From positions 352,001 through 416,000 of the forward strand of contig CAWCPV010000007.1 in the NCBI GenBank assembly GCA_963797555.1: a stretch of DNA of 64,000 nt. Reading direction: 5' to 3'. Origin of the DNA: an uncultured Gammaproteobacteria bacterium (GTDB lineage: Bacteria; Pseudomonadota; Gammaproteobacteria; CAWCPV01). This document shows positions 14,469 to 62,520 of the stretch, in pieces (position 1 is the stretch's first letter; each line of letters opens with the position of its first letter). The notes beneath the pieces are model-generated. The model was not told where the DNA came from. It searched no databases and worked only from the letters and a program-made list of their open reading frames with translations. A program made the position numbers and the translations under genes.

Positions 14469-14550
14469 GGCCGGACAGCGTTACGGGGTTTTACGGCAGC
14501 AGCGTGGAGGTGCGCCCGGTCTAGGCACGGCGGGGGTCTTCCGGACCGAC
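14469..14550 (-). repeat. Diverged duplicate of the 3' end of the GT2 gene (matches 15810-15887)
   Basis: ggccggacagcgttacggggttttacggcagcagcgtggaggtgcgcccggtct vs ggccggacagcgtcacggggttttccggcagcagcgtggagatgcgcccggtct; both encode [12 protein letters not shown]. Confidence 0.9.
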
Positions 14551-14763
14551 CCCAGCACGGCAGGCGGCGGCCAGCTACGGCTGGAGGACAGGCGCAAGGT
14601 TCAAGGAGTGGCGGTTGAAAGCTTCAGCAGCACTCCGGGACGCTGCTCGGTGCGTGCCCCGGCCTCGGCAGTGAGGCCATGGCACGGAGGCCAGTCTTCC
14701 CTGGTGAGGGCTCCCGTACCCGGCCCCTGCACCCCGAACGCCGTCCCCGAGCGCACGCGCAGC

Positions 14764-15597
14764 TTAAGCTGCCAGCAGATAAGACGGGATAAGGGTCAGG
14801 CCCTTCTCCTTAGCGTAACGCTCTACCTCCGGATGCACGGAGTAGGCGACGAGTAATAGAAAGCGTTCGTCGGCAAGCAGGCCGTGGCGGTGGAGGCGCT
14901 CCACGCGCTTGAGAAACTGATCCACGTCCTTCTTGCCCGGGCGGGATTTCGCCTCCCCCACAATGCTGAGGGGCGCGCTGTCCTTCCGGCCTGCACCCAG
15001 GATATTCACCTCCTCTCCGCCGCCCTCCGGGTACTCCACGAAACGGCGGACGAGTCGCCCCTCTACCTCGATTCGATATTCGCGCTTCAAGAGGTCCGGC
15101 AGCACCGCCATCGCGCGATCCTCGAGGCCGTAGCCTACGGTGTCCGAGAGCCCGGCCACCATGTCCCGCGTCTCCTTGAGTCCTCGAGCCAGGGTGGCCA
15201 CCTCCCGCTCAGTCCGTGCCTGGGCCTCGGCAAGGCGCGTGACGGCCTGCTCCAGCGCGCCGACCCTGATTTCTGTCCGCTCCTGAACCTCCGCAAGGCG
15301 CGTGACAGCCTGCTCCAGCGCGCCGACCCTGATTTCTGTCCGCTGCTGAGCCTCCGCGAGTTCTTCCAGCCGCTTCTCGGTGCGTGCCTGAGCCTCAGCC
15401 AGCGCCTGCAGACGCTGTTCGGTGCGTGCCTGGGCCTCGGCTAGTGCGACTACGGCGTCGCGTAGCCCAGCCAGGTCCTCCTTGGTGAGGGCTTGGTGCA
15501 GCTCTTCGTACACGGCTCCAATGGCTGAGGCAACGGCACGCGCCGCCTGCGGGTCCAGGGTATGCGCCAGGTCCTCGTAGAGCTTAAGCGTGTCCAT
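14764..15597 (-). CDS. Coiled-coil repeat protein with C-terminal PD-(D/E)XK nuclease-like domain
   Basis: LAEAQxRTE repeats; GLSDTVGYGLED, EVNIL...GEAK catalytic-like motif. Confidence 0.75.
   Translation of the reverse strand: MDTLKLYEDLAHTLDPQAARAVASAIGAVYEELHQALTKEDLAGLRDAVVALAEAQARTEQRLQALAEAQARTEKRLEELAEAQQRTEIRVGALEQAVTRLAEVQERTEIRVGALEQAVTRLAEAQARTEREVATLARGLKETRDMVAGLSDTVGYGLEDRAMAVLPDLLKREYRIEVEGRLVRRFVEYPEGGGEEVNILGAGRKDSAPLSIVGEAKSRPGKKDVDQFLKRVERLHRHGLLADERFLLLVAYSVHPEVERYAKEKGLTLIPSYLLAA
15231..15356. repeat. Two tandem 63-bp coding repeats within the coiled coil
   Basis: caaggcgcgtgac[g/a]gcctgctccagcgcgccgaccctgatttctgtccgct at 15231 and 15294. Confidence 0.9.
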
Positions 15598-15821
15598 GGA
15601 GTGGATCCTGTCGCGGCCATCGGGCTCAACGAGCCCTCGCACGCCGAGCTGTCATGATACAACACCCGCGCCGAACCGCTCCCGGACCCCAACCACCGGG
15701 GGTGGGCCTCCTACGCCTGCCTCGTGGCGGGGGCACCATGAACCCCGGCTTGTCTGCAGAGGCCAACACACTGGGGTCCCCGAAAGGGTGGCCAGCACCC
15801 CGACGATGGGGCCGGACAGCG

Positions 15822-16622
15822 TCACGGGGTTTTCCGGCAGCAGCGTGGAGATGCGCCCGGTCTCAGGGACGGCGCTTCCGGACCGACGGAGAACAGGCGA
15901 GGTGTCATGAGACCCCAGCGCCATAGGCGGTACAGCACGCTGGTTCTCAGCACGCCAAGCCCGTACGTCACGGAACGTTGGAAGTTTATCGAGCTGGCTT
16001 CCGGGAAGTACTTGGTCGGGCAGGACACCTCTCCGATGCGAAACCCCTGTGCGATGGCCTGTGTCAACATTTGATTGTCAAATATGAAATCGTCGGAGTT
16101 GGCGAGAAGCGGGAGTTCCTCGAGAACCCTCCGGGAAAACGCGCGGTATCCCGTGTGGAATTCGGAGAGCTTCGTTCCAAGCAGGAGGTTCTGCACGGCC
16201 GTCAAGACCCGGTTCGAGACATATTTGTACCGGGGCATCCCGCCCCTTCGTGCAGTATTACCCAGGATGCGGGACCCGAGGACCACGTCGTAGACCCCGG
16301 AAGCGATCATCGACGCCAGCGCAGTCAGGAGCTTCGGCTCGTACTGATAATCCGGGTGGAGCATGACCACGATGTCCGCATCGGACTGAAGGGCCTCCGC
16401 ATAACAAGTCTTTTGATTGGCACCATACCCGCGGTTGCTTTCGTGGACCACGGTTCGTATTCCCAACTCCCGGGCCACTGCGACCGTCCGGTCGGTGCTG
16501 GCGTCGTCCACCAACAGCACGTCATCCACGATGTCGCGAGGGATGCTCGTGTAAGTCTGGCGCAGGGTCTTTTCGGCTTCGTACGCGGGCAAGACGACCA
16601 GGATCTTGTTACCGCTGAGCAT
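15822..16622 (-). CDS. Glycosyltransferase family 2 (DPM1-like)
   Basis: [40 protein letters not shown]. Confidence 0.92.
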
Positions 16623-16645
16623 GTGCCGTGGTCTCCTTGGTCGAT

Positions 16646-60063: not shown

Positions 60064-60164
60064 GTCAAGGGCGAAGGCGGCACACGGCTCGCGATGACGA
60101 CGGTGTCCGGCGGTCGGACGCTGACGGTCGGCCCTCGACGGGCGGGGCCGAGCCGAATGCGAGG

Positions 60165-61166
60165 TTACCCGGAGGCGTTGCCCCGAACGCCGGACGCCCG
60201 GGCGATGCTCCAGTCCCAAGCAGTGCTTAAGATGGTCTCCAGATCATGATGGCGCGGTCGCCAGCCGAGCTCCGCCACCGCGCGTGTGGCCTCTCCGACT
60301 AGACGCGGCGGGTCTCCGCGGCGGCGCGGACCCACCTTTACGGTGAAGTTGCGCCCCGTCACACGGCGCGCTGCTTCGATGACCTCCTTGACGGAAAAAC
60401 CTATGCCGTTCCCAAGGTTGTAAGCCGAACCCGCGCTTCCTGCTTGCAGAGCGCGCAGGGCCAGCACGTGCGCTTCGGCTAGATCGGTGACGTGGATGTA
60501 ATCGCGGATACAGGTCCCATCCGGTGTCTCGTAGTCATCACCCAAGACCGTGACGTGAGGACGCCTCCCCGCTGCGGCGTCCAGCACCAGCGGGATGAGA
60601 TGCGTCTCGGGATCGTGGTCCTCACCCGTTTCGCCTGCCGGATCAGCCCCTGCGGCGTTGAAATAGCGGAGCGAGACGGAGCGCATGCCATAAGCCCGCT
60701 CGAAGTCCTGGAGCATCCGCTCGACCATGAGTTTGGACGCGCCATAGGGGCTGATCGGGTCCTGAGGGTGGTCCTCCGGTATTGGTATTCGGCGGGGCAT
60801 ACCATACGTGGCGCAGGTGCTGGAGAAGATGAACCGCTGGACGCCACGGTCTCGGGCGACTTCCATGAGGGTGAGGCTCCCGGCCACGTTGTTGCGGTAG
60901 TACCTTGCGGGGTTCTCCATCGACTCGCCGACGTAGGCGTAGGCGGCGAAATGCATGACCGCTTCGGGCCCATACTTCCGAAATACCTCATCGAGGCGCG
61001 CCCGATCGAGCACATCCCCTTCCTCCAGAGGCCCCCACTGGACCGCCCATCGGTGGCCGTACACCAGGTTGTCGAAGGTGACGGGCGTGTATCCGGCCTT
61101 TGCCAGGGCTTTGCAGGCGTGGCTGCCGATATAGCCTGCGCCGCCGGTCACGAGGATGGTGGGCAT
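60165..61166 (-). CDS. galE: UDP-glucose 4-epimerase
   Basis: TGGAGYIGSH, HFAAYAYVGES, SSTCATYG, YGASK, RYFNAAGAD, DGTCIRDYIHV. Confidence 0.95.
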   Translation of the reverse strand: MPTILVTGGAGYIGSHACKALAKAGYTPVTFDNLVYGHRWAVQWGPLEEGDVLDRARLDEVFRKYGPEAVMHFAAYAYVGESMENPARYYRNNVAGSLTLMEVARDRGVQRFIFSSTCATYGMPRRIPIPEDHPQDPISPYGASKLMVERMLQDFERAYGMRSVSLRYFNAAGADPAGETGEDHDPETHLIPLVLDAAAGRRPHVTVLGDDYETPDGTCIRDYIHVTDLAEAHVLALRALQAGSAGSAYNLGNGIGFSVKEVIEAARRVTGRNFTVKVGPRRRGDPPRLVGEATRAVAELGWRPRHHDLETILSTAWDWSIARASGVRGNASG

Positions 61167-61224
61167 GAGGCTCGGTGAGTGATGAACAGTGACCCGTAGT
61201 TTAGCCGGGCAGGGGAACAGCAGG

Positions 61225-61490
61225 CTATCCTTCCGGGATGGCGCGGATCAGACCCACGACCGGTCGCGAAACGTCTTCGACTCCGCGCTGGACTTGGACC
61301 AGCGCGGTTAAGTCGCAGACGCCGGCCAATCGGGAGATCTCAATCTGGCTACCCGCATTGCCCGCAGACCCGGAGGCCGCGCAAGAATCTCGACGGCCTC
61401 CCTGCGATTTTGCCGGGCGGCTCCCTCCGGGAATTGCGCGCAATCCACAGCACGGCGTGCGGCGTCGTGAAACGGGTCCGAGTCAACTGT
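61225..61490 (-). pseudogene. Decayed four-helix-bundle (23S IVS-like) protein gene
   Basis: Across frameshifts: RRAV..PEGAARQNRRE / ASGSAG..SQIEISRL..VEDVSR..GLIRAI; flanked by GTGAnnn and nnnTCAC heptamer arms. Confidence 0.65.
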
Positions 61491-61548
61491 GGGGTTGCCT
61501 CGAGGGCCGGCGAATCGCGGCGGGTTATGCTGCCCAGTGGTCTGATCG

Positions 61549-62520
61549 CTAGTCACGGATGGGTGAGCCTCTCAGCAGCCCGTCGAAATAGGCGACCGTG
61601 TGCACCAGCCCTTCTTCCAGCGCCACCGCGGGCTCCCAACCCAGGTGCTGGCGGGCGACGGAAATGTCCGGGCAGCGCTGAGCGGGGTCGTCGGCGGGCA
61701 GCGGCTTGTGGACGATCTCCGAGCGTGAGCCGGTCAGCTCGATCACCTTCTGGGCCAGCTCCAGGATCGTGAACTCCGTCGGGTTGCCCAGATTGACGGG
61801 CCCGGTGAAGTCGTCCGGCGTTTCCATCAGGCTGACGAATCCCTCGACCAGGTCGTCGACGTAGCAGAAGGACCGGGTCTGACCGCCGTCGCCGTAGATG
61901 CGTGATGGTCTTCGGTCCTGCAGATGCCTGCACGATGAAATTGGAGACCACGCGCCCGTCGTTGGGGTGCATCCGGGGTCCGTAGGTATTGAAGATGCGG
62001 GCCACCTTGATCGCGCCTTGTGCTGGCGGTGATAGTCGAAGAACAGCGTCTCGGCGCAGCGCTTGCCCTCGTCGTAGCAGGCACGCGGTGCCGATCGGAT
62101 TGACGTGGCCCCAGTACTCCTCGGGCTGCGGATGCACCTGCGGGATCGCCATAGACCTCGCTGGTGGATGCCTGGAGGATCCTGGCCCTGATCCGCTTGG
62201 CCAGCCCCAGCATGTTGATGGCGCCGTGCACGCTGGTCTTGGTGGTCTGCACCGGGTCGAACTGGTAGTGGACGGGCGAGGCCGGACAGGCGAGGTTGTA
62301 GATCTCGTCCACCTCCACGTAGAGCGGGAAGGTGATGTCGTGGCGCATCACCTCGAAGTGCGGGTCGCCGAGCAGGTGCGCGATGTTGTCCTTGCGTGCC
62401 GGTGAAGAAGTTGTCGACGCAGAGCACGTCGTGCCCGTCGCTCAGGAGCCGCTCGCACAGGTGCGAGCCGAGAAACCCGGCGCCGCCGGTGACGAGGACC
62501 CGCTTGCGCAGCATGTCCAT
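61549..62520 (-). CDS. UDP-glucuronate decarboxylase (UDP-xylose synthase), several frameshifts
   Basis: [54 protein letters not shown] spread over three frames. Confidence 0.9.

Follow-up and report, generated by a model that had tools for sequence, protein, structure and literature searches.

Small toxin-antitoxin and nuclease-like genes between duplicated host gene ends in a gammaproteobacterial polysaccharide locus and elsewhere in the same genome

How small toxin-antitoxin (TA) and nuclease-like genes come to lie in operons without an insertion enzyme of their own is a question raised by a polysaccharide locus of an uncultured gammaproteobacterium (assembly GCA_963797555.1), in which second, diverged copies of host gene ends lie around extra genes. 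The window, meaning the whole stretch of 64,000 nucleotides (nt) that was analyzed (contig CAWCPV010000007.1, positions 352,001 to 416,000; G000:C7:352001-416000, where G000 is the genome under study, 5.35 Mb in 20 contigs), forms one long minus-strand locus that encodes glycosyl-, methyl- and sulfotransferases, wzm/wzt, wzc and wza according to Pfam. An earlier note on this DNA had described three duplicated gene ends with degenerate heptamer arrays beside the cargo, and had proposed that cassettes enter by single crossover through a copied gene junction. Its observations were partly confirmed: two of the three sites hold, the link to the heptamers mostly fails, and the core observation is general beyond the window, while its interpretation is partly supported. 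The scar of cargo between copied gene ends suggests a way for TA and nuclease-like genes to enter operons when they lack an insertion enzyme.

The junction between wzm and wzt (site 2; Table 1) is a clear case of this scar, with the order wzm, miniature inverted-repeat transposable element (MITE), wzt 5' stub, DUF2283 gene, 7-nt array, wzm 3' stub and wzt. The 3' end of wzm is identical to 52137-51884 at 180 of 254 alignment columns, and the stub from about 52700 is identical to the start of wzt at 79 of 115, in agreement with the claim that a diverged junction copy encloses extra DNA. The MITE occurs three times in the genome (window 46536-46678 and 52702-52845, and C4:368540-368679), each time flanked by CTGAG and with the ends of a 449-residue DUF772/DDE transposase encoded elsewhere in the genome, and is therefore regarded as a later, ordinary insertion; its copy at site 2 sets a terminator-like hairpin directly behind wzm. 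Contigs from four DNA runs (shares 0.06-0.10; site 1 not covered) were also compared. A joint at 52125-53284 in runs X3 and X4 was not counted as an empty site, because wzm homologues from many taxa share about 77% and the limit of likeness applied was 80; it shows only that intact genes contain the segment missing from the stub.

The duplication at site 1 is real as well, and the diverged second GT2 3' end described earlier does enclose extra DNA: the order is GT2 glycosyltransferase gene, cargo, decayed part-copy of the cargo and GT2 3' stub, and 15887-15810 and 14550-14469 are identical at 73 of 83 columns. The cargo protein, of 277-292 residues, has no Pfam match over cut-off (NucS_C at E 0.024); its Atlas neighbours bear DUF8196, DUF3782 and PDDEXK_10, from which a nuclease function may be presumed. 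The part-copy (14712-14620, 73% identity) had been overlooked. Best homologues reach 93% for the cargo protein (P0241), 80% for wzm and 62% for GT4, a difference that hints at recent separate movement of this cargo; two loci that give the context of this cargo are uninformative.

Site 3, at the start of the GT4 gene, holds only in part. The second GT4 5' end is real, since the closest GT4 homologues begin with the motif once; the copies at 56387-56362 and 56291-56266 are identical at 21 of 26 positions and in frame, and a 255-nt contig of run X1 spans both with one difference. As a duplication that carries cargo, the site was rejected: MntA and HepT, adjacent genes that together define a type VII MntA-HepT TA system, lie upstream of both GT4 copies, so the duplication contains no gene and encloses only a hairpin (z -2.07; 5 of 200 shuffles equally good), possibly the remnant of an empty armed cassette. 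The statement that flanking host genes remain full length is true of GT2 and wzm, whereas wzt is frameshifted and GT4 has 32 additional in-frame residues. Frameshifts are numerous in conserved genes of the window (for example 61549-62520 and wzt at 50595-51876) and, including that of wzt near codon 195, are probably assembly indels. The reported lack of integrase and transposase genes was borne out for the 75 window open reading frames (ORFs) scanned with Pfam; PF00589 has no match in the window, the nearest among the matches listed on C7 lying at 148934, and serine recombinases were not searched genome-wide. Elsewhere, the genome holds 25 tyrosine-recombinase matches and transposases that have the ends of the MITE.

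Table 1. Features at the three sites and at the head of the locus, in window coordinates
Site	Feature	Position	Strand	Evidence or remark
1	GT2 glycosyltransferase, host gene, 266 residues	15822..16622	(-)	PF00535
1	Repeat copy 1: last ~21 GT2 codons and stop	15810..15887	(-)	88% to copy 2
1	Repeat copy 2: GT2 3' stub, upstream of O-antigen-ligase-like gene	14469..14550	(-)
1	Cargo: heptad coiled coil with PD-(D/E)XK-like C-terminal domain, DUF8196/DUF3782-like	14764..15642	(-)
1	Decayed partial copy of cargo gene	14620..14712	(-)	75/103 columns vs 15493-15391, indels
2	wzm, host gene, intact, 297 residues	52842..53735	(-)	PF01061
2	140-bp palindromic MITE between CTGAG direct repeats, at wzm stop	52702..52845	(-)	folding z -9.15
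2	wzt 5' stub: ~16 recognisable codons, decay after	52608..52701	(-)	79/115 columns
2	Cargo: lone DUF2283 gene, 73 residues	52323..52544	(-)	PF10049
2	7-nt-period array	52190..52224	(-)	19/28, P 0.0005
2	wzm 3' stub, second allele, internal deletion; last 66 codons open	51884..52137	(-)
2	wzt, frameshift near codon 195	50595..51876	(-)
3	MntA adenylyltransferase antitoxin	56918..57319	(-)	NF047752, 84.9 bits (cut-off 60)
3	HepT RNase toxin	56520..56936	(-)	NF047751, 134.1 bits (cut-off 60)
3	Repeat copy 1: GT4 start codon and first ~11 codons	56362..56390	(-)
3	In-frame 70-nt hairpin, weak 7-nt period, between both GT4 starts	56288..56358	(-)
3	Repeat copy 2, without ATG, runs into GT4 body (55083)	56266..56291	(-)
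Head	RfaH antiterminator	62675..63175	(-)	TIGR01955 over cut-off
Head	c-di-GMP-I riboswitch, between strong sigma-70-like promoter and rfaH	63242-63328	(-)

The same geometry is found throughout the genome. Ten Pfam families of TA and nuclease genes gave 130 matches in 113 modules, for which direct repeats of at least 30 bp with at most three occurrences in the genome were sought in 1.5-kb flanks; genes were called with an own hexamer model. Such site-unique repeats bracket 23 of the 113 modules, compared with 11 of 399 random small genes (odds ratio (OR) 9, P 4e-9) and 8 of 355 same-length intervals shifted by 3 or 5 kb (OR 11), and 20 of 77 clusters are positive; small TA and nuclease genes are thus enriched between copies of neighbouring gene ends, which supports the earlier note. 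The copied ends of non-TA genes are those of wzm, cas4, a Dam-like methylase, a TSCPD protein, adenine deaminase, a DEAD helicase, a WYL protein and three unnamed genes, and the remaining repeats lie between genes, belong to tandem paralogues or copy parts of TA genes. Some of the intergenic ones could be attC-like; the repeats of the window are host coding sequence. Two gene termini are covered at wzm/wzt, at a caspase/AAA junction and at adenine deaminase with its convergent neighbour, and further cases beyond the ten families or the flank limit involve hemD, an SNF2 helicase and the caspase/AAA junction.

Repeat identity ranges from 100% to 66%, repeat length from 34 to 831 bp and insert length from 463 to 2864 bp. 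The near-identical repeats, read from the assembly alone, comprise 104 bp at 100% around BrnT (719-bp insert), 181 bp at 98.9% (841-bp insert) and 248 bp at 96.8% around Uma2 (757-bp insert), all with small inserts that lack an integrase; those at 100% and 99% lie at C9:228990 and C3:52306. The repeats stop abruptly, and inspection of 17 cases by eye revealed no common end motif; most inserts have no copy elsewhere in the genome, so cassette ends could not be defined in that way. The upstream long gene is co-directional in 15 of 20 duplicated cases, 42 of 79 other TA cases and 259 of 396 controls, which is not decisive. At one locus (L013, G000:C7:420755-423305), two cas4 copies that are 75% alike, the second split in two frames, flank a DUF433/DUF5615 pair downstream of cas7. 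Repeats around TA genes at C4:479299-479961 and C4:836771-837840 look like putative hsdS end fragments.

The origin of the second copies was approached through the ratio of replacement to silent divergence (dN/dS) in 14 copy pairs, for which neutral decay after local duplication would be expected to give about 0.5 or more. Between wzm and its stub, 37.3 of 50.4 silent and 16.7 of 147.6 replacement sites differ, so that silent sites are saturated at a dN of 0.12, and the stub has no stop or gap across 66 codons; the ratio is no more than 0.25 for the wzm copies, 0.25 (0.14-0.40) for the cas4 copies, 0.19 (0.04-0.52) for the hemD copies and 0.11 over 13 codons for the wzt 5' stub. A tree of 66 columns and 60 of 119 wzm homologues places gene and stub within one well-supported clade of four, and the two are united to the exclusion of other sequences in none of 200 bootstrap trees (0%). 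From this silent-site bias and tree position it follows that some stubs are young remnants of a second functional allele that belonged to a related lineage; for others a local origin looks likely. The second copies of wzm, cas4 and hemD stem from a different functional allele rather than from local decay; the GT2 tail, DEAD and phosphorylase copies look neutral.

The duplicated-end layout recurs in unrelated organisms. In a set of 80 metagenomic loci with foreign wzm genes (wzt placeable in 46), wzt follows within 130 bp at 39 distant loci; the gap exceeds 400 bp at 8, and 6 of these 8 gaps contain genes of TA, four-helix-bundle or nuclease-like type. At 5 of the 80 loci (L061, L062, L087, L099 and L102, by self-BLAST and by eye), cargo is flanked by wzm or wzt stubs. 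At L061, DUF2281/PemK, HicBA, a four-helix-bundle cassette and MNT/HEPN are stacked together with two 3' stubs of wzm and one 5' stub of wzt, and at L102:4680-4750 only ~55 bases from the beginning and ~25 from the end of a wzm copy are left, which shows that a stub can be what trimming leaves of a whole-gene copy. Two positive loci of the phylum sample described below were compared with relatives. Of 14 relative loci behind a vWA gene, one has both HicAB and the stub, and three have other inserts with stubs of 24-57 bp. Behind hinT, the cargo recurs in 1 of 8 relative loci, there without a stub; within one genus, hinT is followed by one and the same DUF4258-like/DUF2283 pair in G152, where a 42-bp stub is present, and in G211, where it is absent. 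At loci L247-L261, the vWA-CoxE 3' end is a hot spot in one genus: the DNA behind it differs in nearly every genome, and several loci carry stubs.

Taking together the observed geometry, enrichment, age series, allele-mosaic copies and recurrence, it is on balance probable, if not by much, that TA and nuclease-like genes enter by host recombination with a gene end as anchor. A piece of 0.5-2 kb with a TA pair or a small nuclease-like gene would join the chromosome while 35-500 bp of target is duplicated; this geometry is seen directly, and its chemistry would be that of the host. Survival may be limited to events in which the repeat restores the gene that was interrupted, which is proposed as the reason that repeats resemble gene ends. 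The module could then pass between related lineages, with its homology anchored in the conserved gene end, either through a crossover within the stub or through one homologous joint combined with an illegitimate one. Of the two copies, which are themselves observed, one would then carry the allele of the donor and the other that of the recipient. Stubs would subsequently shrink by deletion and be re-used, giving arrays, and addiction may slow pop-out between repeats. A comEC-family gene is present in the genome. As a general account, enzyme-free TA and nuclease spread, in which a spare gene-end copy serves as the mobility part, loop-out and re-entry restore the target and leave a re-usable landing pad, and integrase-free, integron-like arrays grow from heptamer-armed seeding at junctions such as wzm-wzt (as at L061, where three stacked modules each have a stub before or behind them), is doubtful at present.

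Several observations weigh against entry by host recombination at gene ends. The scar is absent from 90 of the 113 modules, and by our own reading, in which controls were not classified alike, only some 10 of the 23 repeats reproduce the end of a non-TA neighbour. Copies with dN/dS of 0.81 (GT2 tail), 2.1 (DEAD) and 1.9 (phosphorylase) look neutral, with wide intervals, and the inner forks of the wzm tree are weak (SH-aLRT 59 and 21 at the relevant ones). For none of the cases could a clean empty site be found, the 41 genomes searched include no relative of G000 below class level (same class at best), and the downstream neighbour is kept in 0 of 14 G110 and 0 of 8 G152 relative loci, so that relatives without the cargo are without this neighbour too. 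In a sample from the phylum, which excluded G000's own loci and one duplicate locus and skipped 13 of 86 TA loci with short flanks, repeats flank 8 of 73 TA loci and 0 of 29 BolA loci, a difference that is not significant (P 0.10), and two of the eight positives are a tRNA-like end and a tandem paralogue. comEC also occurs in 10 of 14 control genomes. At site 2, a partner for the DUF2283 gene was looked for and none was found; since a toxin partner is lacking, addiction cannot hold this cargo.

Circle integration, crossover inside a stub and one-anchor illegitimate recombination all fit this geometry. The first of these, the route of the earlier note, has the module pop out with one gene-end copy and re-enter by a single RecA crossover; it would yield exactly repeat, cargo and repeat, including repeats of two termini, and predicts allele-mosaic copies such as those at wzm, cas4 and hemD. 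A similar release-and-invade cycle is hypothesised for restriction-modification (RM) genes in the discussion of PMC2853133, which states that release and infection are without experimental evidence. No circle junction is among the joints listed, which come from contigs only; identity profiles of 119 wzm homologues revealed no clear chimera; and an unbroken X3 contig with a 90% match to wzm along 52882-53656 does not favour a crossover inside wzm, although it could descend from the same chimera. The circle route is accordingly considered possible but unlikely.

Elements that bring a replacement gene end with them are known, as exemplified by e14 at Escherichia coli icd, and the scars could be what is left of integrase-bearing islands that entered gene ends, supplied a new end and were trimmed to their TA genes. 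Such erosion would account for silent-site-biased stubs, is compatible with the 25 tyrosine-recombinase matches of the genome, one of which lies 0.4 kb from a ParDE case on C14, and resembles the acquisition by mobile elements and later streamlining to TA-only islets proposed in PMC13617665. However, inserts are not longer where the repeats are more alike (Spearman 0.14, P 0.53, n 23), and the targets are many and unrelated (wzm, cas4, hemD, Dam-like methylase, helicases, WYL, adenine deaminase). This reading fits worse because the youngest inserts, below 0.9 kb, have the size of TA genes alone, and it is judged improbable.

Local tandem duplication and decay in plastic regions, with TA genes as bystanders that entered separately, would explain the neutral-looking copies at site 1, DEAD and phosphorylase and the cargo remnant of site 1, which fits amplification followed by deletion, as well as G110/G250, where stubs have decayed more quickly (74%) than gene and cargo (94%). 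It is quite improbable nonetheless, given the scarcity of repeats around the neighbourhood-shifted controls and the divergence of the wzm, cas4 and hemD copies under purifying selection. An artefact of error-prone long-read assembly, for which the many frameshifts might speak, is hardly credible, as the copies differ at silent sites, the X1 contig (X1 may be the source sample) spans both copies of site 3, and other assemblies have the same layout.

The earlier note knew of no named system of this kind; the closest is the insertion with long target duplication of RM genes, reportedly described by Nobusato et al. in 2000. In the treatment by Furuta, Abe and Kobayashi (2010, PMC2853133), repeats that span start or stop codons and insertion into an operon are already described for these genes. 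The likeness lies in small cargo of a selfish type, a variable repeat of more than 30 bp, no mobility gene, an unexplained mechanism, insertion into an operon-like structure, and repeats that often lie over a start or stop codon and leave the gene intact. Here, the repeats measure 83 bp at site 1 and about 250+60 bp at site 2, with site 3 borderline at 26-33 bp; the inserts stay far below 20 kb and lack mobile genes, the window inserts having been scanned with Pfam and the genome-wide ones not all in full; and a repeat over a start or stop codon with the gene intact is seen at sites 1-3 and in about 10 of the 23 cases. The difference is that R and M homologues are absent from a cargo of DUF2283, a PD-(D/E)XK-like coiled-coil protein and, elsewhere, TA families (type II/VII TA and small nuclease-like genes), that about 20 clusters occur in one genome, that some copies are 70-88% alike with silent-site bias, and that no empty site was found here. 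The scar works like RM long-target-duplication insertion without being a member of it by cargo.

A literature search, in which most subscription journals were not covered, found no paper on long-target-duplication insertion of TA genes. Displacement arrays of type VI secretion system (T6SS) effector-immunity, Rhs and contact-dependent inhibition (CDI) genes are similar in that a conserved gene part anchors incoming DNA, 3' ends pile up downstream and copies from one genome do not cluster, and homology-facilitated illegitimate recombination is put forward for displaced T6SS 3' ends in PMC5361080. The anchor there is the dedicated conserved N-terminus of a toxin, whereas here it is an ordinary host gene end with unrelated cargo. 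TA islets, as portrayed in PMC13617665, share lone TA pairs between host genes, high turnover and homologous recombination at flanking genes, but are derived there from eroded mobile elements, and the phrase 'direct repeats' is absent from the main text. How lone chromosomal TA islets without mobile-element genes arrive is treated as an open question in PMC13617665 and PMC2654758, with further background in PMC3784515, PMC3457768 and PMC2654758. The presence of the scar at one in five TA modules, in an age series from identical to silent-site-saturated, makes this question testable, and the finding would extend a mechanism of RM genes, itself unexplained, to the selfish modules that are commonest in bacteria.

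The heptamer arrays were assessed by the best count of lag-7 matches in 28 positions, with P from resampling and at least 17 of 28 as the threshold for enrichment. Among the seven named arrays, that at 52190 clearly passes, those at 56286 (P 0.03) and 14709 (P 0.07) are marginal, and those at 15670, 57406, 61172 and 61540 fail. Since the threshold is reached beside 6 of 113 TA modules and 22 of 400 control genes, the arrays were rejected as part of a TA unit; none of the lags 5-10 is enriched at TA modules, and the arrays at 14700, 15655, 52180 and 57395 do not fold better than shuffles. Inverted arrays on both sides of cargo do not occur at the three sites either: site 2 has one on one side, site 1 has none of significance, and the hairpin of site 3 has no cargo. 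Because the threshold is reached at only 1 of the 23 duplicated sites but at 2 of the 3 four-helix-bundle (PF05635) genes of the genome, 7-nt arrays mark a separate class, that of armed four-helix-bundle/GxxExxY cassettes, which use the same hot spots and are related to ORF-bearing intervening sequences of 23S rRNA. Inverted 7-9 nt arrays at operon junctions, seen at foreign wzm loci, are the feature in common with these cassettes; the window differs in having one clear array, one empty hairpin and no PF05635 gene (PF05635 matches only on contig C3, and both PF05635 and GxxExxY are absent among the window ORFs).

The polysaccharide locus is headed by a strong sigma-70-like promoter, a c-di-GMP-I riboswitch and RfaH. 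Because the riboswitch sits between promoter and rfaH, c-di-GMP may control the antiterminator of the whole locus. An element that is presumably ops-like (GGCGGTAGCGT, 59911..59921, minus strand) precedes the MarR_EPS gene. Read-through of the cargo under RfaH is plausible in this operon, but not general, as most duplicated-end cases sit outside it; a scan for promoters and terminators gave no excess compared with shuffles.

Two further kinds of repeated DNA occur in the window. A DUF559 nuclease gene between inverted C-rich/G-rich arms, absent from the earlier note, has three copies that are 95-97% alike (window 20938-21462, minus strand; C3:223492-224016; C3:179915-180397), and its differing contexts indicate recent mobility. 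Of two dispersed intergenic repeat families, one of them with dozens of copies in the genome, the first is found at window positions 2637-2794, 5764-5903, 18622-18853 and 53898-53974 and the other at 16646-16761, 19987-20034 and 48290-48417.

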